Source: a virus
Lineage: Duplodnaviria > Caudoviricetes
IMG/VR virus record: IMGVR_UViG_3300035665_000031
Span: 1-62,421 of that record
DNA length: 62,421 nucleotides
Strand: one strand, 5' to 3'
Part shown: piece after piece, positions 1 to 39,621 of the stretch
Layout of the letters: every line of letters begins with the position of its first letter
Numbering within the stretch: the stretch's first letter is position 1
Made by a program: the position numbers and the translations under genes
The notes under the pieces: model-generated
The model's database searches: none
What the model was told of the DNA's origin: nothing
Seen by the model: only the letters and a program-made list of their open reading frames with translations

Positions 1-36
1 AACCGTTATGTGTAATAATTTTTTACCCACCCACAA

Positions 37-396
37 TTAAGATTTTCTTAAACCATACTTCATTAAAATAGAGTTTGTCGGATTACCCCAAGCCCATCTT
101 GGTATTCTATCATAGAACATACCTAAAAATAAATCTTTATTTGATTGTCTATTAGGTTCTTCCTGTTTTTCAAACTCGGTAGCCAATTCAATAGCAATAT
201 TTCTGATTTCTTTATTATCGTAATGTAAATCAGATAATAGACCATCTTTTCTAGCCCTATTCAGTAATTGAAGGTGTATTTCTGTTTTTGGTTTGGGAAA
301 ATCACCAAATCCAAATTCACTTTCATTAACATCCTCATTCACAAACTGTTTCCAGTTCTTTACTCTATCTATTTGTTCTCTTATTTCTTTACTCAT
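37..396 (-). CDS. Cassette-borne hypothetical protein with N-terminal KQFVNE leader
   Basis: ORF track; N-terminus resembles 2489..3121. Confidence 0.75.
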   Translation of the reverse strand: MSKEIREQIDRVKNWKQFVNEDVNESEFGFGDFPKPKTEIHLQLLNRARKDGLLSDLHYDNKEIRNIAIELATEFEKQEEPNRQSNKDLFLGMFYDRIPRWAWGNPTNSILMKYGLRKS

Positions 397-565
397 AGTT
401 TTATCTTTATATATAAATATTCAGAAATTAAATTTTAGTCCAAATCCCACCCACAAAATTACTACACATAACAAGGTGTATAAGAAAGTTTGCTATCAAC
501 AGTAGTGGTAATTTGAAAGTACATTTAAGCAAACCTTCTCATACACCCAACCGTTATATGCAATG

Positions 566-1192
566 CTACATTTGTGCTTCGATTAAACCGTTTGGTGTTA
601 TTATTCTATTCATCCAATGTTCATCTGTTTGAACATGTCCTTTTCTTACCCATTTTACAACAGATTTCTGAAAATCTTCTAACATAAATTCACTTGTTAA
701 TCTAATAACAAATCCTTATTGTTTATCAGTATTTACTTTAAAGTTTTTGATTAACTCAAAATCAAATACACCACGATACAAAACATTCACAGTTGTTAAG
801 TCAAGTAAATTACAATATTCAATTGTTTCATCCCAAGATAAACATTTTTCTTTATCCCAAACTGAAAATACCATAAAATAACTTGGTAAATTATTGTATA
901 TTAATGAATGTTGAGCATATAAATTTTCACCACATATCCTAAAATCAACAGGTATGTTATGTTTTATATTACCCCAAATTCCTTTTACAAAATTTCTTGA
1001 TGGATGATTATTGCTATCCAATGAACGAGCATAATAATACTCATTCATCATTGTTGTATTTTCACCGTCCATTTTTTCAGTAATAACAATCTCTTTACCT
1101 TCAAAATTGGATAAATCAAATTGCGTTTTATCGTCAAAGCCTTTGCCTTCCGACCATTCTAAATGATATGTTCTCGGATATTTAATTTTCAT
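566..1192 (-). pseudogene. ATP-dependent RNA ligase family protein with in-frame TAA
   Basis: KYPRTYHL and EKMDGEN motifs; TAA at 716-718 sits where the Glu of the EG(F/Y)V motif is expected, frame continues GFVIRL...KWVRKGHVQTDEHW to TAG at 566. Confidence 0.85.
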
Positions 1193-1355
1193 ATTATTCG
1201 TTTTAAACCGTACTACTGCTAACATCGTGTATAAAACATAATGGTTTCAGTGGTACATTCAGCGTTTGCATTTCTATTATAGTTCATTTGTTATTGAAAG
1301 TTTAGTGATTCTAATCCATTACGTTCCATACACCCAGCCGTTAGCAAACATAAAA

Positions 1356-1532
1356 TTATTTAGATAAGTCATTCTCATCAAATAACTTCTTTAATTTGTC
1401 TGCAACTTGTTTTATAAAAAATTGTTTACCAATTATACTACCCATTGGTGTTCCATCATCCAACCAACCTTCTGCTTCAATTTGGTCATCAAACGCATCC
1501 TCAACAATTTTTAAAATATCATCTTGTTTCAT
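1356..1532 (-). CDS. Cassette-borne hypothetical protein
   Basis: ORF filling a cassette between attC-like sites. Confidence 0.65.
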   Translation of the reverse strand: MKQDDILKIVEDAFDDQIEAEGWLDDGTPMGSIIGKQFFIKQVADKLKKLFDENDLSK

Positions 1533-1670
1533 AATTTTACGATTTGCTAACAACAAACATAAGCCATTTTATAGTGCTTCTAATTTGCTGTTATGGTTAA
1601 TATTAAAGTTCATTATTTTAATTTAATTTCGTGTTAAACGTCTCATGTTTGCGACCGTTATAAACAATTT

Positions 1671-1829
1671 TTAATCCCAAGACGAACCATTATTTTGTTT
1701 CTTACCACATTTATCACAATATCTATATGAATAGTGTATTCCACCACATATTGTTTCACCCCATTTATGAAAACAAAATAATTTACGAAAAAAACTGTTT
1801 ATAACATCAAATATATTCAATTTTTTCAT
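1671..1829 (-). CDS. Small Cys/His protein (52 aa), start codon inside attC-like hairpin
   Basis: Hand translation MKKLNIFDVINSFFRKLFCFHKW...YCDKCGKK; below the ORF-track cutoff. Confidence 0.65.
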   Translation of the reverse strand: MKKLNIFDVINSFFRKLFCFHKWGETICGGIHYSYRYCDKCGKKQNNGSSWD

Positions 1830-2032
1830 ATTTTTCACTTTTAGTTATTTACAGATACAAAGATACTACTTTTTATTGAAATTAAAAAATAAAACTGAAT
1901 ATATTTGCAACCGTTATACACAATACTACATTTGTGTTTCAAATTAAGTTCTGTGTTAAAAAAATAATACATACTTATAACAAATGATAAACAACATTAA
2001 AACGATTGTTTATCATCGGACGTTATGCACAA

Positions 2033-2305
2033 TTATAACGAGCCTTTCGTTTTCCAATTTGATGGTGATTGATTTATACCACTAATAAAATCTTCTGGTG
2101 AACCACCATCTGTTCCAGTCGGGTCTGTAAATCTTATTCCACCACTTGATACTATAATATCTGAAACCCACATTTCATCATTGTCTTTAATTTCATTCAC
2201 ATTAAAGTTTTGTGGGTGAAATACACCAGATAATGTAATCACTTCAGTTCCATTTTCTAATTTAGCTTTTCTAACTAAATATTTTCCTCTTAAAATTCTT
2301 TCCAT
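2033..2305 (-). CDS. Cassette-borne hypothetical protein
   Basis: ORF fills cassette. Confidence 0.7.
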   Translation of the reverse strand: MERILRGKYLVRKAKLENGTEVITLSGVFHPQNFNVNEIKDNDEMWVSDIIVSSGGIRFTDPTGTDGGSPEDFISGINQSPSNWKTKGSL

Positions 2306-2488
2306 AAATAACTGTGCCTAACAAAGTGTATAAGCAATAGCCGTTAGGTATTTTAAACTATTGCAGTGTTAATATTAAATTTCATACTTCCAATCAAGTT
2401 AAGTGTTCGGCTACTGCTTATACACTCGTCCGTTATGCTCCATGCCTTAGTTCAGTTCTTCGATTTAACATTTGTGATGAAAAAAGAA

Positions 2489-3121
2489 TTATAATAATGT
2501 ATAACCTGTTTTTAAATACCAAAACCCACCGTCTTGTGGCGTAATAGGTGGTATATAATTTTCTGGTGGACCGTTTCTTTTAGCCAACCCTTTTTCAACT
2601 AATTTTTCCCACATATTAAACCCATCATATCCCCCTGTGTTTTTATTGTAAAGAAAAACAAAATCTGAATTAAAATCACCAAAATCATCAAAGTTTGTTT
2701 TTAACCAATTATTAAAATCTTGATAAAAAGTTTTCATAATTGAATTACCCTTATATTTTGGATAGATTTCAACTTTTTGTATTTGTAATGATACTTTTTT
2801 AGTTTTTTTATCTTCATAAAAAAAGGCAACAAATTTACCAACTTTTTCGTCATTTTTTAAAATGTCAATAATAAATTGGTTTGCGCCATCATTTAGGTTG
2901 CGACTATTAAATTTTAAAGTAAAATCATTAAATGTTGCAACAGTTTCTACTTTTTTAATAAACTTATATATGTTTTTTCCGAGAATTATTTTTTTTAATC
3001 CATCTATTGCTTTACCTAAAAAACCACTATCTTTTGTATTGTCGGTTGTTGTTATTTCTTCATTCACAAACTGCTTAAAGTTTTTAACCTTATCAATCAT
3101 TTTACGTATATCTTCACTCAT
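2489..3121 (-). CDS. Cassette-borne putative GNAT-fold protein with KQFVNE leader
   Basis: IQKVEIYPKYKGNSI resembles the GNAT acetyl-CoA binding motif. Confidence 0.55.
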   Translation of the reverse strand: MSEDIRKMIDKVKNFKQFVNEEITTTDNTKDSGFLGKAIDGLKKIILGKNIYKFIKKVETVATFNDFTLKFNSRNLNDGANQFIIDILKNDEKVGKFVAFFYEDKKTKKVSLQIQKVEIYPKYKGNSIMKTFYQDFNNWLKTNFDDFGDFNSDFVFLYNKNTGGYDGFNMWEKLVEKGLAKRNGPPENYIPPITPQDGGFWYLKTGYTLL

Positions 3122-3332
3122 AGTTTTATTTATATATAAATATTCAGATTTAAAATTTCCACCCTAAAATTCTTTTTGTTTTTTATTTCGTGTTTCAAAT
3201 CACCATTATCGGTTAATAAGTCGGCACGAGAGCATAACATGGTGTATAAGAAAGTTTGTTATCAACAGTTGTGGTAACTTGAAAATTTTATCTAAGCAAA
3301 CCTTCTTATACACCCAAACGTTAGCAACAATA

Positions 3333-13190: not shown

Positions 13191-13280
13191 TTAACTTTTG
13201 ACAATAGTTGACCATCCGAAGATATAATCATCTTCAGCCGCAAAAAACGCACGTTCAAATATGTTGTTAACTGTTCTCAT
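13191..13280 (-). CDS. Leader peptide 1 (MRTVNNIFERAFFAAEDDYIFGWSTIVKS)
   Basis: Hand translation; between promoter and terminator; enriched in F/E/A/D, matching downstream tRNAs. Confidence 0.75.
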   Translation of the reverse strand: MRTVNNIFERAFFAAEDDYIFGWSTIVKS

Positions 13281-13304
13281 TTCTTTTTGTTTAATAAATA
13301 TATG

Positions 13305-13312
13305 CAAAGATA
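13305..13312 (-). promoter_or_regulatory. Bacteroidota-type -7 box (TATCTTTG) for leader 1 and tRNA cluster
   Basis: Matches TAnnTTTG; same context at 36322-36329. Confidence 0.7.
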
Positions 13313-13423
13313 CATATTATTTTCGATATGACAACACATATCTCATATTTATTTTATATAGTATTGATTATCAACTGATTATTTTTAATATATGATATGA
13401 AATATCGTATATATTACTAATAT

Positions 13424-13489
13424 ATGTTGTATATACGATATAATTTGTTGGGTATGCGATAAGAAATTACGCATATAAGTAAGTTATGT
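13424..13489 (+). mobile_element. attI-like site heading array 2
   Basis: Two TGTTG-ATA-CGATA direct repeats then ATAAGTAAGTTAT; conserved at 28027 and 36441. Confidence 0.75.
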
Positions 13490-13495
13490 GCAAGG

Positions 13496-13699
13496 CTACT
13501 TTCTCGTAAAAACGACATTTTGTAACCAAACATCAAAAGAGCTTTCTTGTAATATTTTTTCCTTAGTTTCTTTAGGATGAACAAGTATTCCATAATTCAT
13601 CATGTTCTCTAAATCCATATTTATTCTACCTCTGTGAAAGGCTTCTCGTAAAACTACCTTTGGAAAAAATATCATCAATAATCTTGTCTTAAACTTCAT
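13496..13699 (-). CDS. Cassette-borne hypothetical protein
   Basis: ORF fills cassette. Confidence 0.7.
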   Translation of the reverse strand: MKFKTRLLMIFFPKVVLREAFHRGRINMDLENMMNYGILVHPKETKEKILQESSFDVWLQNVVFTRK

Positions 13700-13856
13700 T
13701 TCGTTTTCAAATTAAATTCAGTGCTGATAAACCGCCCAGCACATAACAGCGGTTTGGCAAAAGCTGCCAGAAACATTGTGCGAACTTTGAACTTTCCGTT
13801 AGGCAGCCTTCGCCAAGCCGCAAAACGTTATAACCAATACTACTTTTCTGTTTCAA

Positions 13857-14069
13857 TTAACTTATCGGTATAAAATGTTTTAAAACTATATCTAAAGGAA
13901 CTAAACGACAATTATAGTCTAATCCGTCTTCTGTTTCTGATTCTATAACAATCACTTGCTTATCATTATCATTTAATTCATTTTTAGCTACCCTTTTATC
14001 TAAAGAATATTCAACACCCTCAATAAATGGTGGTATAGTTTTAATACATTTTATTTTGGTTATCCACAT
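13857..14069 (-). CDS. Cassette-borne hypothetical protein
   Basis: ORF fills cassette. Confidence 0.7.
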   Translation of the reverse strand: MWITKIKCIKTIPPFIEGVEYSLDKRVAKNELNDNDKQVIVIESETEDGLDYNCRLVPLDIVLKHFIPIS

Positions 14070-14153
14070 ATAATATTTTTTATAATTCGTACTGGTTATA
14101 ACAAATGATAAACAACATTAAAACGATTGTTTATCATCGGACGTTAGCTGCCA

Positions 14154-14465
14154 TTAACTGACAACCTCCCATTCTTGAAAATCTGACGGAACAAACGACC
14201 AAAACATAGGATAAATTTGACTGCTTTTCAAGTCTGTTTTTACAAAAAAATCACCCATTACCCATCCTTGCAAATACACAGGCTTATTTTTTATACCATA
14301 CATAGGCAGACTTGAAGAAGTATAAATATGTTTTGGTAGTTTAACCTTTATGCCTTGCAGATTGGTATCTTTTGGTAGGTCCTTGATTTTAACGGCAGCT
14401 AACACAGTATTGCCGACAATAGCGGGTTCTGTGGTATGTTCAACTTTTGTTTTTCTATTTGACAT
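14154..14465 (-). CDS. Cassette-borne hypothetical protein, start inside attC loop
   Basis: PAIVGNTVLAAV is encoded by the hairpin arm. Confidence 0.7.
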   Translation of the reverse strand: MSNRKTKVEHTTEPAIVGNTVLAAVKIKDLPKDTNLQGIKVKLPKHIYTSSSLPMYGIKNKPVYLQGWVMGDFFVKTDLKSSQIYPMFWSFVPSDFQEWEVVS

Positions 14466-14534
14466 TTGTTCTTAATTTTAAGTTTTGTAATTCTAATTCC
14501 GCTACTGCGGCAATACTCGGCACGTTATGTGGCA

Positions 14535-14789
14535 TTAAAAACATACCCAGAATAAAACTTTATCACCATGATTAAACCCACAGTTTAATAAATACTCATT
14601 TATAATTGGTGTATGTTCATTGTGCCCAACCCATTCTAAATTTGCCCTATCATTTCCTTTGCTTCTTTCATTTAGTTGGTATTGTTGTTCTTTGTAAACT
14701 GGGTGTTTTCTATCACCATTTGAAATTTCTTCACAAAGGTCTAATAAATCAATAACCTCCCACCTTTTTATAAAGTTTAAATCACTCAT
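14535..14789 (-). CDS. Cassette-borne hypothetical protein
   Basis: ORF fills cassette. Confidence 0.7.
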   Translation of the reverse strand: MSDLNFIKRWEVIDLLDLCEEISNGDRKHPVYKEQQYQLNERSKGNDRANLEWVGHNEHTPIINEYLLNCGFNHGDKVLFWVCF

Positions 14790-14937
14790 AACAATTAACG
14801 CCACATAACAACGTGTATAAAACATTGCCTTTGTGGTCTTTTTTTAAAGTTTATACTAAATAATTAATTTTATTCATTCTATTAAGTTCTGTGTTGGCAA
14901 CGTTTCATACACGCAGCCGTTATGTTCAATGTTGTTT

Positions 14938-15207
14938 TTAATTTTGAGTTGTTTTATTTTCACCATCACTAATTTTCACCACACCGTAATAGGAAGAATT
15001 TACCACCTTGTTTTTGTAAATGTGTGCATTCTTCAAATATTTTGGTTTAATAAAGAAATGTTTTATCTTCAAAAGTAAATTCTTCCATTTATTTTCATAC
15101 CATACAGTTTCACCATTTATTGATGTTTTTACTATTTTGGTTATGTAAGGTGCTAAAATATAACCTTTACCTAAATCTTCTTTATTTATTTTCGGATAAT
15201 TCTCCAT
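14938..15207 (-). CDS. Cassette-borne hypothetical protein (two-gene cassette)
   Basis: ORF track. Confidence 0.7.
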   Translation of the reverse strand: MENYPKINKEDLGKGYILAPYITKIVKTSINGETVWYENKWKNLLLKIKHFFIKPKYLKNAHIYKNKVVNSSYYGVVKISDGENKTTQN

Positions 15208-15208
15208 T

Positions 15209-15439
15209 TTACTCAGTTATTTTATTTATAAATTCATTTAACTTTTCTTCCATCAAAGAAATTCCTTCATCCATATTACTACAAATAACCATTGTTTTAA
15301 AATTTGGTAGTTCTGGGAACATTGTCCACTGATTAATGGAATTTCTTTTTAAAGAACCAATCACTAAGTTTCCACAAACGAATTCATAAAAACTCTTTTT
15401 GTTGGTTTTATCTCTTAATTCAATATTTTTCGTTTTCAT
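15209..15439 (-). CDS. Cassette-borne hypothetical protein (two-gene cassette)
   Basis: ORF track, ATG start chosen. Confidence 0.65.
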   Translation of the reverse strand: MKTKNIELRDKTNKKSFYEFVCGNLVIGSLKRNSINQWTMFPELPNFKTMVICSNMDEGISLMEEKLNEFINKITE

Positions 15440-15594
15440 AACATTTTTTTTATATGGTAAAATTAAAAACAACACAAAACATAACAAGGTGTATAAGAAA
15501 GTTTTTTACAAAGGTAAGTATAAATTTCGAGATATCCAAATAAAAAACCTTCTCATACACCCAACCGTTATGTGTAATAAAATAAAAATTATGA

Positions 15595-15807
15595 TTATCC
15601 TATATCACATTTGGTTATTAATCCTTTATCAATCTCCAAGTTTATTCTATCAAATCGTAAATCCATTGTGATTGCATAATTATTAGAATCTTCTCTTGTT
15701 ATTCTAACCTTATAATCATTTTCTTTACATAATTCTGTTCCTGATTCTTTATTCATTCCGATTAAAGATTCTAATAATTCATTACTTCCGTTTCTATTTC
15801 TTCCCAT
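15595..15807 (-). CDS. Cassette-borne small protein resembling I78/I13 peptidase inhibitors
   Basis: LIG...VRI...AITMDLRFDRINL...ITKCDIG pattern. Confidence 0.6.
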   Translation of the reverse strand: MGRNRNGSNELLESLIGMNKESGTELCKENDYKVRITREDSNNYAITMDLRFDRINLEIDKGLITKCDIG

Positions 15808-15890
15808 AAATTTAAATTTGTATAATTTTTATTTTACATACACATAACAAATGATAAACAACATTAAAACGATTGTTTATCATCGGAACG

Positions 15891-16229
15891 TTAGGTAACA
15901 TTCAAGTTACCTCGTACCACTAATTTTATCTCTTCGTACTCTTTATTTTCTTTAGCGTATTCAGTTTCAGTAATTTCATCTAAAGCAAGTGAACATAAGT
16001 CACAAACTTTGGAAATACAATAATATGTGGTGCTACCAATTTTAAATCTTCTTCGTGTATCCAACCCATCACGTTTTAAATTATTCTCATTTTTCCAAAG
16101 TTGGAAATCATAGGTGTCTAATGAAATTACTGCAATGGAACGTTGCCTAACACCAGATATATTTAAGTGCTTAGTTTCGTACTCTTGAACTATCCGTTTT
16201 GCTTTTAAATAATCTTTTTCTGTTATCAT
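15891..16229 (-). CDS. Cassette-borne hypothetical protein, start inside attC loop and stop at the GTTA core
   Basis: ORF track; HLNISGVRQ encoded by hairpin arm. Confidence 0.7.
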   Translation of the reverse strand: MITEKDYLKAKRIVQEYETKHLNISGVRQRSIAVISLDTYDFQLWKNENNLKRDGLDTRRRFKIGSTTYYCISKVCDLCSLALDEITETEYAKENKEYEEIKLVVRGNLNVT

Positions 16230-16289
16230 AATTTTTCGTTTTTAAATCGCACCTAAATATATCTGCGAACCGTTATAAGTAATATTACT

Positions 16290-28026: not shown

Positions 28027-28092
28027 ATGTTGTATATGCGATATAAATTGTTGAATATACGATATAAAGTTGCGTCAATAAGTAAGTTATAT
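28027..28092 (+). mobile_element. attI-like site heading array 3
   Basis: atgttgtatatgcgatataaattgttgaatatacgata...aataagtaaGTTAT, matching 13424 and 36441. Confidence 0.75.
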
Positions 28093-28170
28093 ACAATGCT
28101 ACATTATCGCTTCGTATTAAGTTTCGTGGTTATATTCTTTTTGTTTTATTTTTTTTACCTAACACACTTT

Positions 28171-28647
28171 TTAAATTTTAGTTTCTTTATCAAGAAATTT
28201 TACATCATATTTTTTTGATAGTTTATTAAACAGTGGTTTTAATTTTAGAAATCCAGTTTCACTATATGATGATGTTTCAAATTGATAATCATTTTCAGAG
28301 AACCATCTAAAAATATAATCACTTAATTTAGAAGCATAACCCATATTTTCAAAATTATTTAATATTGATAAGTATGATAACCAATATGTATTTTCAATAT
28401 ATGGTGATTTTCTTATATGTGCGAGTCCCACCATCTTATCATCAATGTATAATACGAAAAAATATACATTATCAATACCGCTAAAATCAGAACTATTATC
28501 AAAGTATTTAAAACTATTAATTTCTTTTATTTTTTCATTATAAAATCTCAAAAATTCTCTACCCGTATAATGATTAATTTTATAATCTGTATTCTGTTCA
28601 TTCAAATATTCACGTATAGTTGTCTTTATAAATTTTCTTAATTTCAT
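28171..28647 (-). CDS. Cassette-borne GNAT acetyltransferase-like protein with EYLNE leader
   Basis: LSYLSILNNFENMGYASKL resembles GNAT motif A. Confidence 0.65.
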   Translation of the reverse strand: MKLRKFIKTTIREYLNEQNTDYKINHYTGREFLRFYNEKIKEINSFKYFDNSSDFSGIDNVYFFVLYIDDKMVGLAHIRKSPYIENTYWLSYLSILNNFENMGYASKLSDYIFRWFSENDYQFETSSYSETGFLKLKPLFNKLSKKYDVKFLDKETKI

Positions 28648-28866
28648 AATAATAAATAGTTGTTATTCTATATATAAATATTCAAATTTTAAATTCCCAC
28701 CCACAAAAATAAAACAAAAAGATTTCGTTCTTCGTAAGTAGTTTAGTGGTAAATTTCCGCACTGCATATAACAGCGTATATAAGAAATGGTACATAAACA
28801 TTTGTGTTAAATTCCAATATTCTACAAGTGCCACTTCTCATATACGCAAACCGTTAGGCGAAAGTG

Positions 28867-29217
28867 CTACGTTCCTCGTTCTACCCATCGTTCCAATTCT
28901 TCGAGTGTTAAATTTCCAAATGTTGTTATTTGGCTTTCTGTATATGGTTCATCCCAATACTCAATCAACTTACCTTCTTTTGTTGTAAAAGATTGCCATA
29001 TCTTAAATTCTCTTTGTGTCCAATTTTTTACTTTATCTGCCGTTTCAGTTCTGATGCTTAATCCTATTCTGTGGTCAGAAAAGCCAAAATAATGCTTTCC
29101 GTTTAACACTCTATGTAAGTGCCAATAACCAAATAGCGATACTAAATTAACCGCACCTTCGCCTAACAGCACATTGCCAAAAGTGGGGTTTTCGTTTTTC
29201 AAATCAACATTTTCCAT
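28867..29217 (-). CDS. Cassette-borne hypothetical protein, start inside attC loop
   Basis: PTFGNVLLGEG encoded by hairpin arm. Confidence 0.7.
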   Translation of the reverse strand: MENVDLKNENPTFGNVLLGEGAVNLVSLFGYWHLHRVLNGKHYFGFSDHRIGLSIRTETADKVKNWTQREFKIWQSFTTKEGKLIEYWDEPYTESQITTFGNLTLEELERWVERGT

Positions 29218-29307
29218 ATTATCAAATTTTGTATTTCAATTAAAGTTTAGTGGTTCAATGCCCCACCTTCGGCAATCTGCAAAACGTTATAAGTAATAAA
29301 ACAAAAA

Positions 29308-29553
29308 TTATGATTTATTTAATTCTCTATCTATAACTTTACCAAAATGTTCCCAATAAAATTCAGCACTATCTTGTTGTCTTAACAATCTATCATCATC
29401 AATGAGTTTGAAAAGTTGTCCAAAATCTGCTTTACATTCTAATGTTTTATTGTCTTTTTTTACCAATAAAGTATCTCCATTCTTTTCAAATGAACATTTT
29501 GGTAAAAGTTTTCTGAGAATTTCTAATCCTCGTTCATCAAATTCATTTTTCAT
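29308..29553 (-). CDS. Cassette-borne hypothetical protein
   Basis: ORF fills cassette. Confidence 0.7.
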   Translation of the reverse strand: MKNEFDERGLEILRKLLPKCSFEKNGDTLLVKKDNKTLECKADFGQLFKLIDDDRLLRQQDSAEFYWEHFGKVIDRELNKS

Positions 29554-29638
29554 ATTGTATAATTTTTGTTTTACATACTTATAACAAAGTGTAAAAAACA
29601 TTAAAACGATTTTTTACACCCAACCGTTATAACCAATA

Positions 29639-29941
29639 CTACATTTGCGTTTCAAATTTATCTGGATATGCAGTTTTTATAATATTGTAAACAAACTCAT
29701 TTGCTATCATTTCACCATAAGGAGAACAAGCAATATCTTCTGCAAAATCATTGTAACTTAAAAATGTTTTTACACCCATAATTTCAATATCAACCCCAAT
29801 TTTTCCAGCTTTAGCATCTTCTGTTGGTTCTAATCTATACATTTCGGTACTAATTAACTTTACATCAGTTCCACAAAAACATTTTTTCATCACCTCAATT
29901 GCTCCATAAACTATTGGTGAAATTTCTTTATTTGTTTCCAT
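29639..29941 (-). CDS. Cassette-borne hypothetical protein
   Basis: ORF fills cassette. Confidence 0.7.
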   Translation of the reverse strand: METNKEISPIVYGAIEVMKKCFCGTDVKLISTEMYRLEPTEDAKAGKIGVDIEIMGVKTFLSYNDFAEDIACSPYGEMIANEFVYNIIKTAYPDKFETQM

Positions 29942-30090
29942 ATTTTTATTTGTTTTTCAATTTAAGTTTTTTATTAAATAAACCGTACTGGTTATAACAA
30001 GGTGTATAAGAAAGTTTGCTATAAAGTTTAGTAGTAATTTGAAAGTTCATCTAAGCAAACCTTCTCATACACCCAACCGTTATGTGTAAT

Positions 30091-30312
30091 TTATACTTGA
30101 CCTCCAGTAATCATAAAATAATTATCAACAATCTTCTTACCACCTTCTATATCAGTATTGAATCTATGACCAACCAATTCATATGTTTTATCAGTTAGTT
30201 CCATATGACAATCGCAGTTGAAGTGTTGGTGGTTCATATCCCACGCTTTAGGTACTACCTTTAATGTTCTCATAATTATTTTATGAATATCCAGCATTTC
30301 ACTTTGTTCCAT
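30091..30312 (-). CDS. Cassette-borne hypothetical protein
   Basis: ORF fills cassette. Confidence 0.7.
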   Translation of the reverse strand: MEQSEMLDIHKIIMRTLKVVPKAWDMNHQHFNCDCHMELTDKTYELVGHRFNTDIEGGKKIVDNYFMITGGQV

Positions 30313-30404
30313 ATTTCAATTTAATTTTAAGTTTGATAAACCACACATAACAAATGATAAACAACATTAAAACGATTGTTTATCATCAGACGTTATAACC
30401 AATA

Positions 30405-30713
30405 CTACTTTAGTTCTTCGATTTTAGTTTCGTTTGGAAACTTTTTAAAATCATATCGAACACTATATAATATGTCCTCAAACCAATCATCTTTGTTTGA
30501 ACCATTAACTATTTTATCTTTCCAAGATTTTATTTCATATAAATAAATTACATCTGGATTAACTCGTTCAATTTCTTTAAACCATAACTTCATACCACCA
30601 TCGCCTTCTCTATACATTGAAGTTTTGACACACCATTTTTCATTAGGATATTGTACTTCTTCTGGTTTAGTATTTTCATCTTGTAGTGGTCGTTTCACTA
30701 ATTTAATTTCCAT
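30405..30713 (-). CDS. Cassette-borne hypothetical protein
   Basis: ORF fills cassette. Confidence 0.7.
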   Translation of the reverse strand: MEIKLVKRPLQDENTKPEEVQYPNEKWCVKTSMYREGDGGMKLWFKEIERVNPDVIYLYEIKSWKDKIVNGSNKDDWFEDILYSVRYDFKKFPNETKIEELK

Positions 30714-30832
30714 AATTTAAAAAGTTTTATTTTGTTTTAAATTTAAGTTCCTACTAATTTTACCGTACTGGTTATAACAGTAAATATATTGCATTAAAAC
30801 GACAATATATTTGCAAACGTTATAACCAATTG

Positions 30833-31069
30833 TTAATCAAACTCTGGTTCATTATATATACCTCCATAATATTCTGTTCCACATTTATCAGAACAAAAAA
30901 TTTCATCATAATCACCGCTTTCAATCATTATCCAAGTTTCAAATTCTTCACCGCATTTAACGCAAGAATTTTTTGTTCTTTCACGTAAACAACTGGTTAT
31001 AACATCAGATATACGCAATTCTTTTTCTGCGTTGTCTGATACATTTTCTTCGTTTTTTAGTTTTTCCAT
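30833..31069 (-). CDS. Cassette-borne Zn-finger-like protein, start inside attC loop
   Basis: CVKC...FCSDKC; ELRISDVITS from hairpin arm. Confidence 0.7.
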   Translation of the reverse strand: MEKLKNEENVSDNAEKELRISDVITSCLRERTKNSCVKCGEEFETWIMIESGDYDEIFCSDKCGTEYYGGIYNEPEFD

Positions 31070-31118
31070 ATCTATTAAGTTTGTGTTAGAACTGCGTATA
31101 TCTGAGAACCGTTATGTG

Positions 31119-31346
31119 TCATTTTAGACGAGCATACCATTTCAATCTATCATCATTACCAATTTCAACCAATTCAAACTTAACATTACAATTTTCTAAT
31201 ATTTTCCAAGGGTGAAAATTAAAACTCAAAGGGTCTATTGGTAATTCACCATTTCTATTACCAGTTAAATTTGAATTATCACACTTTACAACCCAATAAG
31301 GTTCAATGTTGAAATTGGTTGATTTAATTAAAGTTCCTGTTTCCAT
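31119..31346 (-). CDS. Cassette-borne hypothetical protein
   Basis: ORF fills cassette. Confidence 0.65.
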   Translation of the reverse strand: METGTLIKSTNFNIEPYWVVKCDNSNLTGNRNGELPIDPLSFNFHPWKILENCNVKFELVEIGNDDRLKWYARLK

Positions 31347-31491
31347 ATTAATTTGAATTAAAAACGACACATAACAAGGTGTATATGTAATGTGAGGTTC
31401 AGTGGTTTATCAAAGTTTATCATTCTAATCATCATTTGTGGTTAAGCCAAGTGTAGTGTTTCAAATCTCACACTACATATAGACCCAACCG

Positions 31492-31829
31492 TTAGCTGCA
31501 AGTGCTAAAAGCATCATACAACTTTTTGGCTTTATCTCCACAAATACCAACTACTTTTTCAGCTGCTTCTTGTGCTGACAATCCTTCGCCCAAAAACTTA
31601 GTATCAAATCCAAGTTCATAGCAATGAAAAACCCAAGAAGGTTTATAATCACGGTGTCCACAAGTAATTGTTATTCTACATTCACCAACATTTGTACTAA
31701 AACCAGTTGGTATTTTTCTTTAGAATCTCTACTATATGAAGTGGTATCTTTCCAAACCACACCAGCAGCTAACAGTACCTTTGCAAAGGTAAGGCAGCTT
31801 TCTTGTAATTTTGATAGTTCTCGTTCCAT
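31492..31829 (-). pseudogene. Frameshifted cassette gene
   Basis: MERELSK...SRDSKEK then a one-base loss in an A run near 31715; the other frame runs IPTGFST...LYDAFSTCS to TAA at the GTTA core. Confidence 0.65.
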
Positions 31830-31840
31830 TTGATTTTAAT

Positions 31841-34475: not shown

Positions 34476-34530
34476 ATATTTTTTTTACAAATATACTAAA
34501 TAATTTTAATTTTGTAAAAGTGTTGACATG

Positions 34531-34629: not shown

Positions 34630-34817
34630 AAAATAATCACCCAAAACCCTAGATTGGTTATTAACAGTGATTCGGATATCTAGTAGTAGCACATTCACTC
34701 AAATACGTTTTTTAAATGAAATTATGTGTTCGTTAAGGTTACTAGAGTCTATTAGTCTTTGTTTGCCTTTGACTACTGGTTATTTCGATATCGTTTTTTA
34801 CAAATATACTAAATATA

Positions 34818-35555
34818 TTAATCATCTAAATATTTTTGAATATTATCTTCATAAGATTTAACCCATTTTCTTATTGCGTTATCACTAACACCATATTTTC
34901 TACTAAGTGAAAGATAACTATTATTTTTTAAATCATTAATTAATTCTTCATATGTTGGTCTATTAACTCTACGTTGTTTTAATGCTCTATCAATTTCTTT
35001 TTGTGTTTGAACTCTAGGTTGTTTAATTAATGGAGGTAGGTTTTTATTTAACTCAATTAATTTTAATTTATTCTGATGAATTTTAGTGTTCTTCCCACAA
35101 TAATTATGGGTTAATGCGTGACAATTAGGACATAATATTTGTATATTTTTTAAATTATTATCAAATCTATCACCATTTATGTGGTGTAATTCTAGTGGTA
35201 TTGGTTTATCAGCCCAAATATATAATTTGCAATTCTCACATTTATGTTCTTTATAACCCTCTCTAATTAAACGAATTCGTAAATTATTTGATGAAATATA
35301 TTTAACTTTATTTGTTAAAATATCTTCCATTTTAATTCTAAAATTAAATGTCTCTTTTCTACCCAACTTGGTTCCGAGTGACCATTTATGTCCAAGAAAA
35401 TGTGATATGTCTATATTAAATGATTTCAATCTTTTCTTTAAAGTCATAAAATTACTACCACATATAACTATATTTAGTTTACGACAAACATCAGATATTG
35501 TTTTTGAATCACTAACCGCTTTTTTTAATTCTTCTTCTGTAAATTTATATTTCAT
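34818..35555 (-). CDS. HNH endonuclease with C-terminal HTH (probable homing endonuclease)
   Basis: CENC, LELHHINGD, NIQILCPNCH; directly after tRNA-Leu. Confidence 0.9.
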   Translation of the reverse strand: MKYKFTEEELKKAVSDSKTISDVCRKLNIVICGSNFMTLKKRLKSFNIDISHFLGHKWSLGTKLGRKETFNFRIKMEDILTNKVKYISSNNLRIRLIREGYKEHKCENCKLYIWADKPIPLELHHINGDRFDNNLKNIQILCPNCHALTHNYCGKNTKIHQNKLKLIELNKNLPPLIKQPRVQTQKEIDRALKQRRVNRPTYEELINDLKNNSYLSLSRKYGVSDNAIRKWVKSYEDNIQKYLDD

Positions 35556-35559
35556 ATTG

Positions 35560-35632
35560 TACTCTTAGAGAGATTCGAACTCTCAAACACGGGTTCTAAA
35601 GCCGTGACGGTTACCAATTACGTCATAAGAGC
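35560..35632 (-). tRNA. tRNA-Leu(TAG), no long variable arm
   Basis: gctctta/taagagt acceptor, TTTAGAA loop, gagag-TTCGAAT-ctctc. Confidence 0.75.
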
Positions 35633-35682
35633 ATGTTAATCTGTCCAACCATTACATCAGACGGATTTTTATTTATTAAAGG

Positions 35683-35771
35683 TGGGCCTTGAGGGGGTCG
35701 AACCCTCACCCTACTATTACTTCAGAACACTGTTTAAGAGTGTCGTGTACTGCCAATTTCACCAAAGGCCC
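35683..35771 (-). tRNA. tRNA-Leu(TAA)
   Basis: gggcctt/aaggccc acceptor, acact-CTTAAAC-agtgt arm, long variable region. Confidence 0.88.
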
Positions 35772-35780
35772 ATTTTATCT

Positions 35781-35984
35781 TTACACCAAAAAATGTCTCA
35801 ATTTTGAATTATTCATTTCTTTTTGTTCTTTTATTTTTGTGGTTAATTCATCAATAATATTAGTATAGAGTTCTTCTCTATCACTATTGATATTTTTCTC
35901 ACACTCTGGGTGTAAGGTATAGATTTTATCTACCACCTTAACCAGCCCAGTTATTTCTTTATTGCAATATTCACACGTAAACAT
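35781..35984 (-). CDS. Small Zn-binding hypothetical protein within tRNA cluster
   Basis: CEYC...HPEC. Confidence 0.6.
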   Translation of the reverse strand: MFTCEYCNKEITGLVKVVDKIYTLHPECEKNINSDREELYTNIIDELTTKIKEQKEMNNSKLRHFLV

Positions 35985-36000
35985 AATTTCTTTTTTTTAG

Positions 36001-36073
36001 TACCGCTAAATGGAATCCAACCATTGTATCTACTTTGTAAGAGTAGTGTTCTGAAGCACTGAACTATAGCGGC
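36001..36073 (-). tRNA. tRNA-Val(TAC), divergent D and T loops
   Basis: gccgcta/tagcggt acceptor, ctact-CTTACAA-agtag arm. Confidence 0.75.
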
Positions 36074-36090
36074 ATATTTTTTATTTCCAG

Positions 36091-36161
36091 AGCGTGGTGA
36101 TGGACTCAAACCATCATACCATGTTTTGCAGACATGTCCCTAATCTTTCGGGCAACCAGGC
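36091..36161 (-). tRNA. tRNA-Cys(GCA)
   Basis: catgt-CTGCAAA-acatg arm, U73 discriminator. Confidence 0.82.
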
Positions 36162-36169
36162 TTATAATG

Positions 36170-36205
36170 AAAAAACCCTCAGATTTTTAACGTCTGAGGG
36201 TTTTT
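36170..36205 (-). terminator. Attenuator-like terminator ahead of tRNA cluster 2
   Basis: aaaaaccctcaga/tctgagggttttt stem with U run, about 8 nt before tRNA-Cys. Confidence 0.8.
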
Positions 36206-36225
36206 AAATATTCTTTAAAGTTAAT

Positions 36226-36297
36226 TTAAACGCACAGACAACCATTACCTAATAATAGGCATAACACTAGGACTAATATGTTGTTTGATGTTCTCAT
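36226..36297 (-). CDS. Leader peptide 2 (MRTSNNILVLVLCLLLGNGCLCV)
   Basis: Hand translation; 13 of last 16 codons are Leu/Val/Cys, matching downstream tRNAs. Confidence 0.75.
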   Translation of the reverse strand: MRTSNNILVLVLCLLLGNGCLCV

Positions 36298-36506
36298 TTC
36301 TTTTTGTTTAATAAATATATGCAAAGATACTACTTATTTATGATATAGCAATACTTTATTTATATTTATTTCTTATTTTGTTGATTATCAACTGATTATT
36401 TTTAATATATGATATGAAATATCGTATATATTACTAATAAATGTTGTATATGCGATATAAATTGTTGGATATACGATATGAATTATCGTCAATAAGTAAG
36501 TTATAA
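36275..36506. repeat. About 230-bp duplicated module (leader start, promoter, attI-like site), second copy near 13259-13489
   Basis: Long identical blocks, e.g. tgttctcatttctttttgtttaataaatatatgcaaagatac and ttgattatcaactgattatttttaatatatgatatgaaatatcgtatatattactaata. Confidence 0.9.
36441..36506 (+). mobile_element. attI-like site heading array 4
   Basis: Same direct repeats and AATAAGTAAGTTAT core as 13424 and 28027. Confidence 0.75.
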
Positions 36507-36532
36507 GTAATATTATTTTTGTTTTGAATTAG

Positions 36533-36772
36533 TTAAATATCACTTTCTGGATTATGTAGATATTCATTAGGAAATTCTATAATGAAAAGTTTTCTTATTT
36601 TTTTATATGGATATTTAACTAATTCTTTCATATCATATTTTCCTAACTTTTCCAATTTTTGAATATGGTACATCCTAACCATCATTTTTCTAAATCCTAT
36701 TTTTCTTTTTTTAACTAAATGTCTTAATATTTTCCATTTACATTTAATTGACATTTTTTTAATTAACCACAT
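36533..36772 (-). CDS. Cassette-borne basic hypothetical protein
   Basis: ORF fills cassette. Confidence 0.65.
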   Translation of the reverse strand: MWLIKKMSIKCKWKILRHLVKKRKIGFRKMMVRMYHIQKLEKLGKYDMKELVKYPYKKIRKLFIIEFPNEYLHNPESDI

Positions 36773-36905
36773 ATTTAATTTTTTATAAGGTAAAACAAAA
36801 ATAATACATACTTATAACAACAAATATAAGGAATAAATTTTGATTTATGTATTTTTATAGGTAAAATTTACTTCTCATATTTGCAACCGTTATAAACAAT
36901 AAAAA

Positions 36906-37091
36906 TTATTCATTAGGCATCAGGTCTTTTTTGATAATTTCTACCATGTCATCAAATGAAATTTTTCGTTCATCTGCTTGTTGCTGTATAAATTCTTCAC
37001 TTAGGTGAATATAATTGGCATTCGATTTTCTATTTTTAGAAATTTCATTTGATGCCTTAATCAACTTTTCTATTAACTTTTTCTGTTCCAT
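36906..37091 (-). CDS. Cassette-borne hypothetical protein
   Basis: ORF fills cassette. Confidence 0.7.
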   Translation of the reverse strand: MEQKKLIEKLIKASNEISKNRKSNANYIHLSEEFIQQQADERKISFDDMVEIIKKDLMPNE

Positions 37092-37190
37092 AATTTTTAC
37101 AGTTTATAACAAGGTATATGTGAAATACCTCATAAAGTTTCTACTAATTATTTAAGTTTCGTGGTAAGGTACTTCACATATACCCAACCG

Positions 37191-37403
37191 TTATGTGCTA
37201 TGCTGTGCGACAAACAAATCATAGACCTCCATCGTTGTAAATCCTTTAGTGCCGTAAAATTCGCTTTTGTCATACCATAACTGCATATGCGGTGATTTCC
37301 AAAAGTGAGTATGTAAGTTTACCCAATCAAGAAAAGCACAGCACATAACAGCCGTTTGCTGCAATGGCGGGGTTTGTGGTGTATTCAAGTTTTCGTGTTC
37401 CAT
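37191..37403 (-). CDS. Cassette-borne hypothetical protein, start inside attC loop and stop at GTTA core
   Basis: PPLQQTAVMCC from hairpin arm. Confidence 0.7.
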   Translation of the reverse strand: MEHENLNTPQTPPLQQTAVMCCAFLDWVNLHTHFWKSPHMQLWYDKSEFYGTKGFTTMEVYDLFVAQHST

Positions 37404-37481
37404 TTTACATTTATTTTAGTTTGACAATTTTGTATTCCAAAGCCGCCACTGACAGCAAGCGGCAAAACGTTATGTGTAATA

Positions 37482-37748
37482 CTACTTTTGTTCTTCGATT
37501 TTAGTTTCCGTGTTAGAACTTTTTAAAAATCTGTTGTATAAATTTTCATCTTTTCCACACCAATATACAAATTCTAAAAACGTGTAGTGTCTATGTGGAT
37601 GTGGATGAACAACAGACCTACCCATCATAATATACCACCTATTTGTATATAGTTCTGTTTCTCTATTCACACCACTACACTCCGCTTTCGGTAGTTTTAA
37701 ATACTCTTCATACCCAAGTTTAAGTTTTTCTTCAAATTTATTTTCCAT
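37482..37748 (-). CDS. Cassette-borne hypothetical protein
   Basis: ORF fills cassette. Confidence 0.7.
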   Translation of the reverse strand: MENKFEEKLKLGYEEYLKLPKAECSGVNRETELYTNRWYIMMGRSVVHPHPHRHYTFLEFVYWCGKDENLYNRFLKSSNTETKIEEQK

Positions 37749-37948
37749 AATTTTATTTTTAAAAAGTTCTTATTCGTTTTCTAATTAAATTTCTACTAAA
37801 TTAACCGTACTACACATAACAAGGTGTATATGTAATGGTGGTTTCATCTGTAATTCAACATTAGTGGTTTCTATGAAGTTCGTTGGTTAATCAAAGTTCA
37901 GTTCTTTCTATCCACCACTACATATACACCCAACCGTTATCGGCAACC

Positions 37949-38344
37949 CTAAGACACCGACAATTCGACACCAGTAAGTGCATAATAAAGGTTTTGTAAT
38001 TCGTGGACATACTTAGGACTTTTAAAGTTTCTATCCATATACCAATAAGACTTACCTGAATTAATATTCCAATGACCATCTTTAGAAAAACACATAAAAT
38101 CAATTCCTACTTGTTTTTCATAAAACCTTGCTCCCAATTCTTCAGTCTTAAATGTAAATCCAAGTTTTAAAAACCACTCGTCTGTAATTTCAATAGGTTC
38201 GTAAAAATATGGATTTGGTTTGCCTTCAATTTGTGAAAGTTCTAACAATCCAGCAGGTGTTATCTGAAATGGATTTTGATTTGTATTGAAAATAACGTAA
38301 TTCCCAATTCTCAAATCTTTTGCTTTTAAAGTTTGTATTTGCAT
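37949..38344 (-). CDS. Cassette-borne phage hypothetical protein
   Basis: DLRIGNYV...PIEITDEW...YVHELQNLYYALTG. Confidence 0.75.
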   Translation of the reverse strand: MQIQTLKAKDLRIGNYVIFNTNQNPFQITPAGLLELSQIEGKPNPYFYEPIEITDEWFLKLGFTFKTEELGARFYEKQVGIDFMCFSKDGHWNINSGKSYWYMDRNFKSPKYVHELQNLYYALTGVELSVS

Positions 38345-38538
38345 TTTATTTATCTTTTAGTTGTTAATAATCATTCCGAAAGAAGGGCAGCCGATAACAA
38401 GTGCTATACAATATGGCGGCTGACGTGCTTCGATTAAACATTTGTAATTAATTCAACTTTGGTGCATCGTATTGGGCTTTCGTGCTAAAAGCCCGCCACA
38501 TCGTATAGCACCGATACGTTATAAGTAATAAAAATCAT

Positions 38539-38871
38539 TTAGATTTCGTGTAATCTACAAAGATGTACAACTTGTCTTAACTCGTCTATGTTTTTTATAT
38601 AACCTTCAAATAACTTATTATCATCTTTGCCTTGTTCAACAATAGTAGTGAAACCATCATTTTTGTATCTTCTCATATAAAAAACATATCCATCCTCTTT
38701 TGTACTTTTGTGTTTCCAAAAATACCCTTCCATTAAGTTTATATAATCCGCTTCGTACCAATCACCAGTTGATAGTATTTCATCTTTTGTTAAATGATTT
38801 TTACTACTTATAACATCAGATATATTCAATTCTGAGTTCTCGTTAAATCTCTTAATTCTGTTCTCTTTCAT
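38539..38871 (-). CDS. Cassette-borne hypothetical protein, start inside attC loop
   Basis: KRFNE leader; ELNISDVISS from hairpin arm. Confidence 0.7.
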   Translation of the reverse strand: MKENRIKRFNENSELNISDVISSKNHLTKDEILSTGDWYEADYINLMEGYFWKHKSTKEDGYVFYMRRYKNDGFTTIVEQGKDDNKLFEGYIKNIDELRQVVHLCRLHEI

Positions 38872-38933
38872 AAGTTTCTTGTTAATTTTAAGTTTATATA
38901 TTAAATCTCAGAACTAAATATATCTGAGGAACG

Positions 38934-39290
38934 TTATGTTAAATTAAAAATTACTACCTTCACCTTTAATTCATAACGCTTTGCCAAATCAATCATATGT
39001 TTAGTACCTTTGCTTTTACCATCCCAAAAAGCAATTAAAGCATCTCCGTATTTAGCCATTTCTTCATTCCGTTTGTATCCTGCACTTTTGCCATATTTAT
39101 CCCAATCGGCAGGAAATTGCTTTATTGGGTATCCCTTTTCGTTTGCATACTTTTCGCCAAGTTTATCAGCACCATTGGCAGTTCCACTTACTATTTCAAT
39201 TTCTGTTTGCAAACTCAATGCCTTGTCACAATTTTGGCAAAGCAAATCGTAATCATTAAATTCTCGTCCACCTGCAATTATTATCTTCAT
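38934..39290 (-). CDS. Cassette-borne SLOG-family (DUF2493/YspA-like) protein
   Basis: IIIAGGR, SGTANGAD, ADWDKYGKSAGYKRN, AFWDGKSKGT. Confidence 0.85.
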   Translation of the reverse strand: MKIIIAGGREFNDYDLLCQNCDKALSLQTEIEIVSGTANGADKLGEKYANEKGYPIKQFPADWDKYGKSAGYKRNEEMAKYGDALIAFWDGKSKGTKHMIDLAKRYELKVKVVIFNLT

Positions 39291-39357
39291 AATCCGTAAT
39301 TTTAACTAAACATAACACAGTATTTGCGCCATTAAAACAAGCGCAAATACTCGTCCG

Positions 39358-39621
39358 TTATCGGTAATTATTAGCAAACTCCAATCCTTTATTGGTAATT
39401 TCAGTAATAAGAGGCGTTATATATACATCATCATATCCATTGTTTTTCATATAATCTAACAATATTCTAATCATATCCATTGTTAATATGGCTATATCAC
39501 CTCTTAAAATTTCTTTAGTGTAATCCTGTTCAACACCATAAAGAATATAACTACCGATAACATCAGGTATAAGTAATGACGGGTTAGTCGCTTCTTGAAG
39601 TTTCGTTTTTTCTTTTGACAT
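39358..39621 (-). CDS. Terminal cassette hypothetical protein, stop at GTTA core
   Basis: SLLIPDVIGS from the lone left arm. Confidence 0.65.
   Translation of the reverse strand: MSKEKTKLQEATNPSLLIPDVIGSYILYGVEQDYTKEILRGDIAILTMDMIRILLDYMKNNGYDDVYITPLITEITNKGLEFANNYR

Follow-up and report, generated by a model that had tools for sequence, protein, structure and literature searches.

Probable integron-like cassette arrays in a phage genome fragment are built on a hairpin site family found in Bacteroidota and their phages

We analysed a linear IMG/VR virus record of 62,421 bases (IMGVR_UViG_3300035665_000031; Caudoviricetes), hereafter the window, in which small genes separated by folded, attC-like sites occur in four blocks. 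We assign a probability of roughly 0.8 to the reading that these blocks are integron-like cassette arrays, belonging to a site family common to Bacteroidota chromosomes and their phages. The completeness rating of the record is 18%, which implies a whole genome of about 340 kb; the label 'jumbo' is therefore an estimate. Lake or fresh water is the habitat in 23 of the 24 rows of public runs containing the record. Almost all long open reading frames (ORFs) of the window lie on the minus strand, and there are seven tRNA genes.

The blocks hold 29 complete TAAC...GTTA imperfect palindromes (7, 7, 8 and 7), and an additional hairpin site is cut by the contig start (bases 1-8). Site cores measure 48-128 bp, or 54-134 bp when 3-base flanks are included. 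All 29 have one orientation, with an invariant TAACA start and CGTTA end on the plus strand, and at least five are near-identical copies of 48-49 bp. A minus-strand ORF of 52-210 amino acids is found in 28 of the 29 cassettes, the ORF-less exception being a cassette of 109 bp. In seven cassettes the first ATG lies inside the hairpin, and three of these have no ATG outside it. An earlier, sequence-only reading of this DNA had reported about 29 complete palindromes of 54-134 bp in four blocks; its lengths and positions agree with ours, and its block limits at 31830 and 39621 are right, taking in two extra cassettes with truncated sites (31770 and 39558). The features are as follows.

1..3323, +, array 1: 7 complete sites, 7 cassettes; left end lost at the contig end inside a site, along with whatever attI or recombinase it held
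469..556, +, attC-like site, 88 bp
1220..1343, +, attC-like site, 124 bp; cassette gene 716-1225 RNA-ligase-like; flank mismatched (1/5)
1548..1660, +, attC-like site, 113 bp
1802..1916, +, attC-like site, 115 bp; start of ORF 1671-1829 lies within it
1978..2025, +, attC-like site, 48 bp; closes the gene-less 109-bp cassette
2319..2435, +, attC-like site, 117 bp
3235..3323, +, attC-like site, 89 bp
13258..13502, 245-bp block of attI-like site and region upstream of a tRNA cluster; 84% identical to 36275-36519
13418..13486, +, attI-like site, head of array 2: two GTT-led direct repeats, then core GTTA at 13483-13486
13484..16275, +, array 2: 7 cassettes
13744..13830, +, attC-like site, 87 bp
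14099..14146, +, attC-like site, 48 bp
14400..14527, +, attC-like site, 128 bp; ORF 14154-14465 starts in the loop
14806..14922, +, attC-like site, 117 bp
15482..15570, +, attC-like site, 89 bp; cassette with two ORFs
15567..15893, +, cassette A2c6 (the sixth of array 2), with its own 49-bp site at 15845-15893
16148..16275, +, attC-like site, 128 bp; ORF 15891-16229 (A2c7) starts in the loop
28021..28089, +, attI-like site, head of array 3: core GTTA at 28086-28089
28087..31830, +, array 3: 8 complete cassettes and a decayed ninth
28769..28856, +, attC-like site, 88 bp; closes the GNAT acetyltransferase cassette (ORF 28171-28647)
29164..29289, +, attC-like site, 126 bp; ORF 28867-29217 starts in the loop
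29582..29629, +, attC-like site, 48 bp
29995..30082, +, attC-like site, 88 bp
30348..30395, +, attC-like site, 48 bp
30775..30822, +, attC-like site, 48 bp
31000..31114, +, attC-like site, 115 bp; ORF 30833-31069 starts in the loop
31372..31494, +, attC-like site, 123 bp
31492 to about 31830, decayed ninth cassette of array 3: frameshifted ORF; only the left arm of the site remains
31765..31803, +, truncated site, R'' and left arm only; complements the last GTTA flank of array 3
36275..36519, second copy of the 245-bp attI/tRNA-upstream block
36435..36503, +, attI-like site, head of array 4: core GTTA at 36500-36503
36501..39621, +, array 4: 7 complete cassettes and an eighth with a damaged site
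36815..36892, +, attC-like site, 78 bp
37107..37193, +, attC-like site, 87 bp
37346..37472, +, attC-like site, 127 bp; ORF 37191-37403 starts in the loop
37817..37939, +, attC-like site, 123 bp
38395..38521, +, attC-like site, 127 bp
38811..38936, +, attC-like site, 126 bp; ORF 38539-38871 starts in the loop
39313..39360, +, attC-like site, 48 bp; closes the YspA/SLOG-family cassette (ORF 38934-39290)
39358-39621, eighth cassette of array 4: ORF intact, right arm of the site lost
39553..39591, +, truncated site, R'' and left arm only, within ORF 39358-39621; complements the last GTTA flank of array 4

Chance does not account for these sites. An untuned arm-pairing score was applied to the whole window and to 20 block-wise dinucleotide shuffles of it. 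At a score of at least 22 the window had 16 sites versus a shuffle mean of 1.15 (maximum 4), and at 18 or more it had 36 versus 7.0 (maximum 10). A tuned detector returned the same 29 sites and one weak match at 55107 on the plus strand, with 0 on the minus strand. An Rfam scan of the window returned tRNAs only. CRISPR, tandem repeats and plain terminators were ruled out for the hairpin arrays by their anatomy.

Attributes of attC sites are combined here with a distinct anatomy. All 29 sites have R'' and R' boxes with an AAC/GTT core that form a hairpin. G.T pairs number 48 on the minus strand against 4 on the plus strand, and the minus strand folds better in 27 of the 29 sites, by a mean of 3.5 kcal/mol; such a G.T skew is described as a mark of the attC bottom strand, and extrahelical bases on the L'' arm as an attC criterion (PMC5027507). 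Extrahelical bases are absent from these sites. In the 22 long sites the inner arm is paired along 16 positions with no bulge, and an asymmetric spacer of 4 versus 7-8 nucleotides lies between two unbulged arms. Position 11 of the outer arm is never a Watson-Crick pair (0/29) and is T.G in 23; position 11 of the inner arm is T.G in 21 of the 22 long sites and Watson-Crick in one. The same mispair recurs in other loci (145/188 outer arms, 120/129 inner arms), and a model built from the 29 sites had 0 matches in two phages with classical integron arrays. The attC architecture proposed from the letters alone therefore stands as regards the AAC/GTT-core hairpin, and falls as regards extrahelical bases, spacer and fixed mispair, in which these sites differ from attC. 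Gene orientation differs too. Integron cassettes have top-strand genes read from an attI promoter, whereas 28 of the 29 cassettes here have a bottom-strand ORF, and viral cassettes as a group (n = 170) include 151 inverted genes versus 1 in canonical orientation. The system works like an integron yet lacks three of the features that define one.

Arrays 2, 3 and 4 start at homologous, non-hairpin elements of 70-90 bp that contain two GTT-led direct repeats and end in GTTA. These three shared attI-like sites went unmentioned in the sequence-only reading. The flank of each head complements the R'' of the first cassette (5/5, 4/5 and 5/5 bases for arrays 2, 3 and 4), and we infer that the elements are insertion targets. 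At the far ends of arrays 3 and 4, the flank of the last GTTA has an exact partner at 31770 and 39558, respectively (chance about 0.001-0.002), each followed by a left arm without a right arm; no such truncated-site remnant was present at the far ends of arrays 1 and 2. Truncated end sites indicate decayed cassettes, as expected at a distance from attI. The arrays thus have a fixed polarity, with the attI-like site on the left and decayed cassettes on the right. The heads of arrays 2 and 4 lie within the duplicated 245-bp block upstream of tRNA clusters. Each of the two clusters (minus strand) is preceded, at 13123-13312 and 36161-36329, by a promoter-like motif, a very short ORF, and a hairpin with a T run, an arrangement that possibly reflects attenuation of tRNA transcription. 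Several arrays and repeated attI-like heads were also seen in other large phages, L139 (G001) and L080/L194 (G002), in which no intact recombinase was found.

Cassette limits bear the signature of a circular intermediate. For each site we compared the five bases before TAAC with the five bases after the previous GTTA. Complementarity to the previous core is perfect at 22 of the 29 sites and extends to 133 of 145 bases; permuted flanks gave a mean of 64.7 bases and a maximum of 94 in 100,000 (p < 1e-5). Only 2.1 of 5 bases complement the site's own GTTA. The outer stem pairs with the flank of the previous core over about 15 bases. When fetched loci and the window are taken together (duplicates kept), 212 of 345 neighbouring pairs are perfect to the previous core and 5 to their own. 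Pairing with the previous core matches the prediction of a circular intermediate.

One cassette has demonstrably moved. A2c6 is 98.5% identical to a cassette of the 309-kb phage G003, where it is the first of its array and directly follows the attI-like site. The identity has exact limits, running from the left GTTA to the GTTA of the right-hand hairpin, and 19.9 kb of backbone (window 40001-59900) has no DNA match in G003. The unit therefore moves between unrelated backbones with its right-hand hairpin included. A homologue of the A2c7 ORF in another locus (L076) has 79% identity across all 112 amino acids. The mobile unit is thus a GTT core, a small gene and the next core, with the hairpin to the right on the plus strand, ahead of the gene. 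Nine cassette pairs, with 0.14 expected, have both ends alike beyond the arms and unrelated bodies; these non-independent, AT-rich pairs could instead be diverged homologues. Reused cassette ends bear on cassette formation, which has been named an outstanding question (PMC8618304).

A tyrosine recombinase adjoins such arrays in other genomes. A 40-nucleotide site core was found unchanged in at least 129 viral stretches, and flanks were fetched for 80. By profile count, 17 of these 80 loci (15 distinct contigs) have a full recombinase gene and 5 have a partial one. In the phage loci the gene is always on the strand opposite the sites' top strand, and in nine loci it starts 37-53 bp from the attI-like GTTA. 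The phage enzyme has 264-268 residues and the Bacteroidota enzyme about 280-400. Both PF00589 and PF13495 are present, and the N-terminal PF13495 domain and the fold are shared with IntI4. Scores against the IntI model TIGR02249 are 152-191 bits versus a cut-off of 265, with the match in two pieces. The catalytic K and HxxR are 59-67 residues apart versus 105-107 in two IntIs, about 45 residues fewer. The predicted structure has no helix at the position of the IntI insertion, and XerA and IntI4 are closest to it; the best profile and PDB matches are XerA-like. That insertion is called essential for integron function (PMC8138268). The sequence-only reading had looked to an integron integrase encoded elsewhere or borrowed from the host. 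The search found no tyrosine recombinase in the window and, elsewhere, an array-adjoining enzyme without the IntI insertion and below the TIGR02249 cut-off, so an IntI-type enzyme is not borne out. What holds of its proposal that the phage stores and shuffles cassettes is that recombination-bounded mobile cassettes occur at several loci with crossover at the GTT core.

In a 45-protein tree, the recombinase family stands apart from IntI and from XerC/D, with weak support (84/94). Phage recombinases form a supported group that includes the integrases of the cultured phages Ingeline and Freya. No hairpin sites were found near these two integrases, so the family is not always linked to arrays. Ten array-bearing records were searched whole: the gene is intact in two, truncated or split in three, and was not found in five, all of them incomplete. 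Two of the three records with truncated or split genes have a completeness rating of 100%, and in each the arrays occupy two distant loci; the complete phages G002 and G003 have truncated recombinase genes only. In a 465-kb phage (G004:C1:13309-14732; L193) the recombinase gene is split by about 800 bp of inserted DNA.

Sites and enzyme are also widespread in bacteria. In the phylum of a Crocinitomicaceae metagenome-assembled genome (MAG), sites were detected in 39 of 81 sampled genomes and a close recombinase homologue in 28. The two co-occur (22/27 versus 16/53; Fisher P = 1.6e-5, with a post hoc cut-off and kinship uncorrected). Bacterial sites are mostly 124-128 bp long. Canonical gene orientation holds for 33 of 39 cassettes in the 54 intervals examined, with the enzyme usually upstream on the same strand. 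The Crocinitomicaceae array begins with a frameshifted, inverted cassette of phage type (L055:10051-10740), followed by canonical ones. This hints at phage-to-host transfer, with the caveat of MAG binning; its neighbours are housekeeping genes. The distribution of the site family, together with a Bacteroidota-type promoter motif, suggests a Bacteroidota host for the phage of the window. That motif shows no strand enrichment in the window (74 versus 66), and we therefore make no promoter claim for the cassettes. Short contigs packed with inverted cassettes also occur in MAGs labelled Methanolobus or Gammaproteobacteria (L056, L057, L060 and genome G089), and are probably misbinned phage DNA. 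Site-like sequences were seen in uncultured phages of 462-642 kb (H26-H28: LR745206, LR756502, LR756500).

Two cultured Polaribacter phages provide the best evidence for rearrangement at cores without an adjacent enzyme. P12002L has been treated as carrying a classical CALIN (cluster of attC sites lacking an integron integrase) with divergent attC sites, and P12002L_attC1 is the sole one of six phage-borne sites for which recombination by IntI1 was not verified (PMC9892861). P12002L_attC1 has the same 11-nucleotide loop and 4 versus 7 spacer as the 48-bp sites of the window. The sequence published as 'attC2' (Qi et al. 2023) is present in two identical copies in P12002L; each copy ends in GTTA and heads a row of minus-strand genes separated by this site family (L346:29172-32300 and 37190-39260), and it resembles the attI-like site of the Crocinitomicaceae array. 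On its sequence, the published 'attC2' reads as a duplicated attI-like head, and the P12002L genes as inverted. P12002L has no match to the recombinase profile. P12002S is a sister phage from the same sample (PMC4615864). The two phages are 99.7% identical over 5 kb and diverge exactly at the GTT of the attI-like site; two methyltransferase cassettes are in swapped order between them, with breaks at GTT cores. Several cassettes of P12002L and P12002S (L347) encode DNA methyltransferases.

We propose the following mechanism. The single-stranded minus (bottom) strand would fold into two arms of about 15 bp with an asymmetric loop of 4 versus 7-8 nucleotides, and the T.G mispair at position 11 would mark each arm. 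An IntI-related tyrosine recombinase without the IntI insertion could then bind the arms and cut at the AAC/GTT core. Recombination between two sites would excise cassettes as circles, and insertion would occur at the attI-like site. Inverted genes would run with the general minus-strand transcription of the phage. Gene inversion places new cassettes at the downstream end of the row, so that expression would depend on read-through or in-cassette signals, not on an attI promoter. The minus strand of the window is G-rich throughout and, if this reflects the direction of replication, the bottom strand would, speculatively, be the lagging-strand template, a placement that favours folding and excision in integrons (PMC5371416). 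Equally speculatively, gene inversion may let genes follow transcription while the sites stay active.

Several observations weigh against integron-like arrays at work in this phage. The window has no tyrosine recombinase, and only its association with such arrays in other genomes identifies the enzyme. Cassette-like homologues were found for only 3 of the 29 cassettes among the fetched loci; the sites neighbouring the A3c8 and A4c7 homologues are unconserved. An all-versus-all test of whether the left or the right hairpin accompanies the gene had four informative pairs, with the right side closer in 4/4 (P = 0.125). Contigs from 4 of the 24 runs (lake water, 2020-2025) were compared with window 25001-41000, which spans arrays 3 and 4. 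The spanning contigs are colinear with both arrays, and ongoing shuffling of this phage was unseen in the four runs. Clean GTTA-to-GTTA excision was found at 0 of 15 listed joints (there are 76 further joints, and contigs lose rare variants); paralogous cassette ends account for those listed. In one run at 28089 and in two runs at 38522, contigs break off just past GTTA; these loose ends are probably from other phages that share the sites. No near relative was available for a comparison of cassette order. A search of viral and metagenome contigs with the attI-like motif had no match and so yielded no near relative of this phage, and a search with the peptidase M28 gene returned none. The ABC permease gave 54 loci at 64% identity or less, with sites in 1 of 54 as judged by the model, and 1 of 5 jumbo records sharing the permease has sites. 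The best 80 of 242 loci for the IMP dehydrogenase-like gene reach 59% at most, and 2 of the 80 have at least two sites. A metagenome search with the GNAT gene gave a single locus (L345), where no site closes the gene. The control phylum was weak: its genomes are small, and 5 of 80 others matched, 4 of them marginally. The 25 matches of its seed genome lay on short contigs that are probably misbinned viral DNA. An IntI family search in the control phylum had no match anywhere, controls included, and is itself a weak control. Lastly, IntI1 did recombine the P12002L sequence that we read as attI-like (PMC9892861), and is therefore not blind to that sequence.

Three other explanations were weighed. 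The one that survives best, though we consider it unlikely, is that once-mobile cassettes are now frozen in this phage as a CALIN-like relic with no serving enzyme. Consistent with it are the lack of a recombinase in 62 kb, the colinear contigs in four runs, the decayed array ends, the gene-less cassette, and the truncated recombinase genes of G002 and G003. A relic fits poorly, however, with flanks still perfect at 22 of 29 sites and with a 98.5% identical cassette in an unrelated backbone; moreover, the sister phages differ at cores although P12002L has no recombinase match, and 82% of this genome is unseen.

It is improbable that the cassettes are those of a classical integron and depend on a true IntI borrowed from the host. 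The AAC/GTT core and the TAACA...CGTTA ends are the same as in attC, the bottom strand has the G.T skew, the recombinase shares PF13495 and fold with IntI4, and IntI1 recombined five of six phage-borne sites (Qi et al. 2023, PMC9892861). Against a true IntI are the missing extrahelical bases, the asymmetric spacer, the 0 matches of the site model in the two classical-array phages, and an adjoining enzyme far below the IntI cut-off with short K-HxxR spacing. The only member of this site family tried with IntI1, P12002L_attC1, is also the only one of the six left unverified.

Marginally less probable still are RNA signals (terminators or processing sites) or dispersed miniature repeats reshaped by homologous recombination or slippage with no site-specific enzyme: all genes lie on the better-folding strand, so that a transcript would fold, seven ORFs start in a loop, the near-identical 48-49 bp copies could recombine homologously, and slippage between attC sites is documented for short cassettes even without an integrase (PMC5371416), but the outer arm pairs hundreds of bases away at the previous core, which fits a circular intermediate and not an RNA fold, A2c6 was exchanged between a hairpin and an attI-like site sharing only the core, 17 loci have a dedicated recombinase right at the array head, and bacterial sites have their genes on the other strand (33/39).

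Returning to integron-like arrays, the source of the enzyme divides our expectation. The gene may sit next to the lost head of array 1 or in another unassembled part of the genome, which we favour slightly while holding it a little below even odds; supply in trans by the host or a co-infecting phage comes close behind, and frozen arrays are a distant third. More tentatively, perhaps one chance in three, Bacteroidota and their phages could share one cassette pool in which an integron-like recombinase reads hairpins by the T.G mispair instead of by flipped-out bases. Phages would carry multiplied attI docking sites but no enzyme, which would come in trans from the host or from a co-infecting phage; cassettes would pass from phage to host, and new ones would arise from gene bodies swapped into reusable ends.

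Sedentary chromosomal integrons are among the nearest known systems. Alike are the single-gene cassette arrays, folded sites, AAC/GTT core, circular-form flank complementarity, G.T-stabilised bottom strand, simple direct-repeat attI-like head, decay away from attI, and a related tyrosine recombinase with the same N-terminal domain. Unlike integrons, the arrays described here have no extrahelical bases, a 4 versus 7-8 nucleotide spacer and a T.G mispair in both arms; their genes are inverted, with the site preceding the gene start and in seven cassettes containing it; the recombinase lacks the IntI insertion; and one genome has three or four attI-like sites, none beside an integrase. Xer-type recombinases (archaeal XerA, XerC/D) resemble the enzyme in its XerA-like best matches and in having no catalytic-domain insertion. 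dif sites are 28-bp double-stranded XerC/XerD sites. In contrast to arrays of dif modules, in which double-stranded sites alternate, these are hairpins of 48-128 bp in one orientation (29/29). Phage-borne CALINs, already known, are attC-like clusters without an integrase in virulent phages, and their example P12002L carries this site family; the clusters in the tables examined have 2-4 sites predicted with classical models, and only small site clusters are reported in phages (PMC9892861), whereas the window has 29 sites in four arrays with attI-like heads. What the window contributes is a genome with several attI-like heads, a position-11 mispair in both arms, a cassette transferred with exact limits, and the connection to the cultured pair. 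We found no description of this hairpin-site family or its recombinase in the literature, with subscription journals and bioRxiv supplements outside the search.

Integrons are regarded as bacterial systems defined by IntI and its insertion. If an insertion-less recombinase acts on these hairpins, it would represent a second structural solution for single-strand site-specific recombination. Phages would then have a programmable accessory-gene store of their own, and phage and host would trade genes cassette by cassette. Phages commonly carry the site family, as do about half of the sampled Bacteroidota genomes, and it showed no cross-match to classical arrays (one direction); Bacteroidota have been reported with very few integrons (PMC9024848). 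P12002L and P12002S, with their Polaribacter host, are a ready test system for the in-trans question.

Little of the cassette cargo can be named. Among the cassette ORFs, Pfam names were limited to an RNA ligase domain, GNAT and a YspA/SLOG protein. Three cassettes (37-396, 2489-3121 and 28171-28647) share the upstream motif TATTTATA and an N-terminal leader ending L/V-N-E, and all three have 88-89 bp sites. By our reading, this build recurs in 16 of 210 cassettes of the loci. By analogy with T4, we presume that TATTTATA may be a late promoter and the leader a capsid-targeting peptide.

Other genes of the window include a sigma factor, an SbcC-like nuclease subunit, NAD-salvage enzymes, an ABC transporter and amidases; no capsid or terminase gene was present among the window ORFs scanned. 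An NAD-salvage/ADP-ribose cluster at 17495-24188 encodes phosphoribosyl pyrophosphate synthetase, cytidylyltransferase-like, Macro, NADAR and NAMPT-like proteins, and an ADP-ribosyltransferase-like gene lies at 33123-34079. An OmpA-domain protein and an ABC permease with its ATPase are spread across two loci (5658-7472 and 26370-27958), and the permease, with its 54 loci, is common in large phages. A TROVE/Ro-like RNA-binding protein (DUF7788, DUF2828) is encoded at 8381-10072, beside a long stretch poor in ORFs (7473-8380 and 10073-10670), a possible place for non-coding RNAs. SbcC-like and phosphoesterase (SbcD-like) genes at 58831-62282 place a hairpin-cutting nuclease pair in this hairpin-rich genome.

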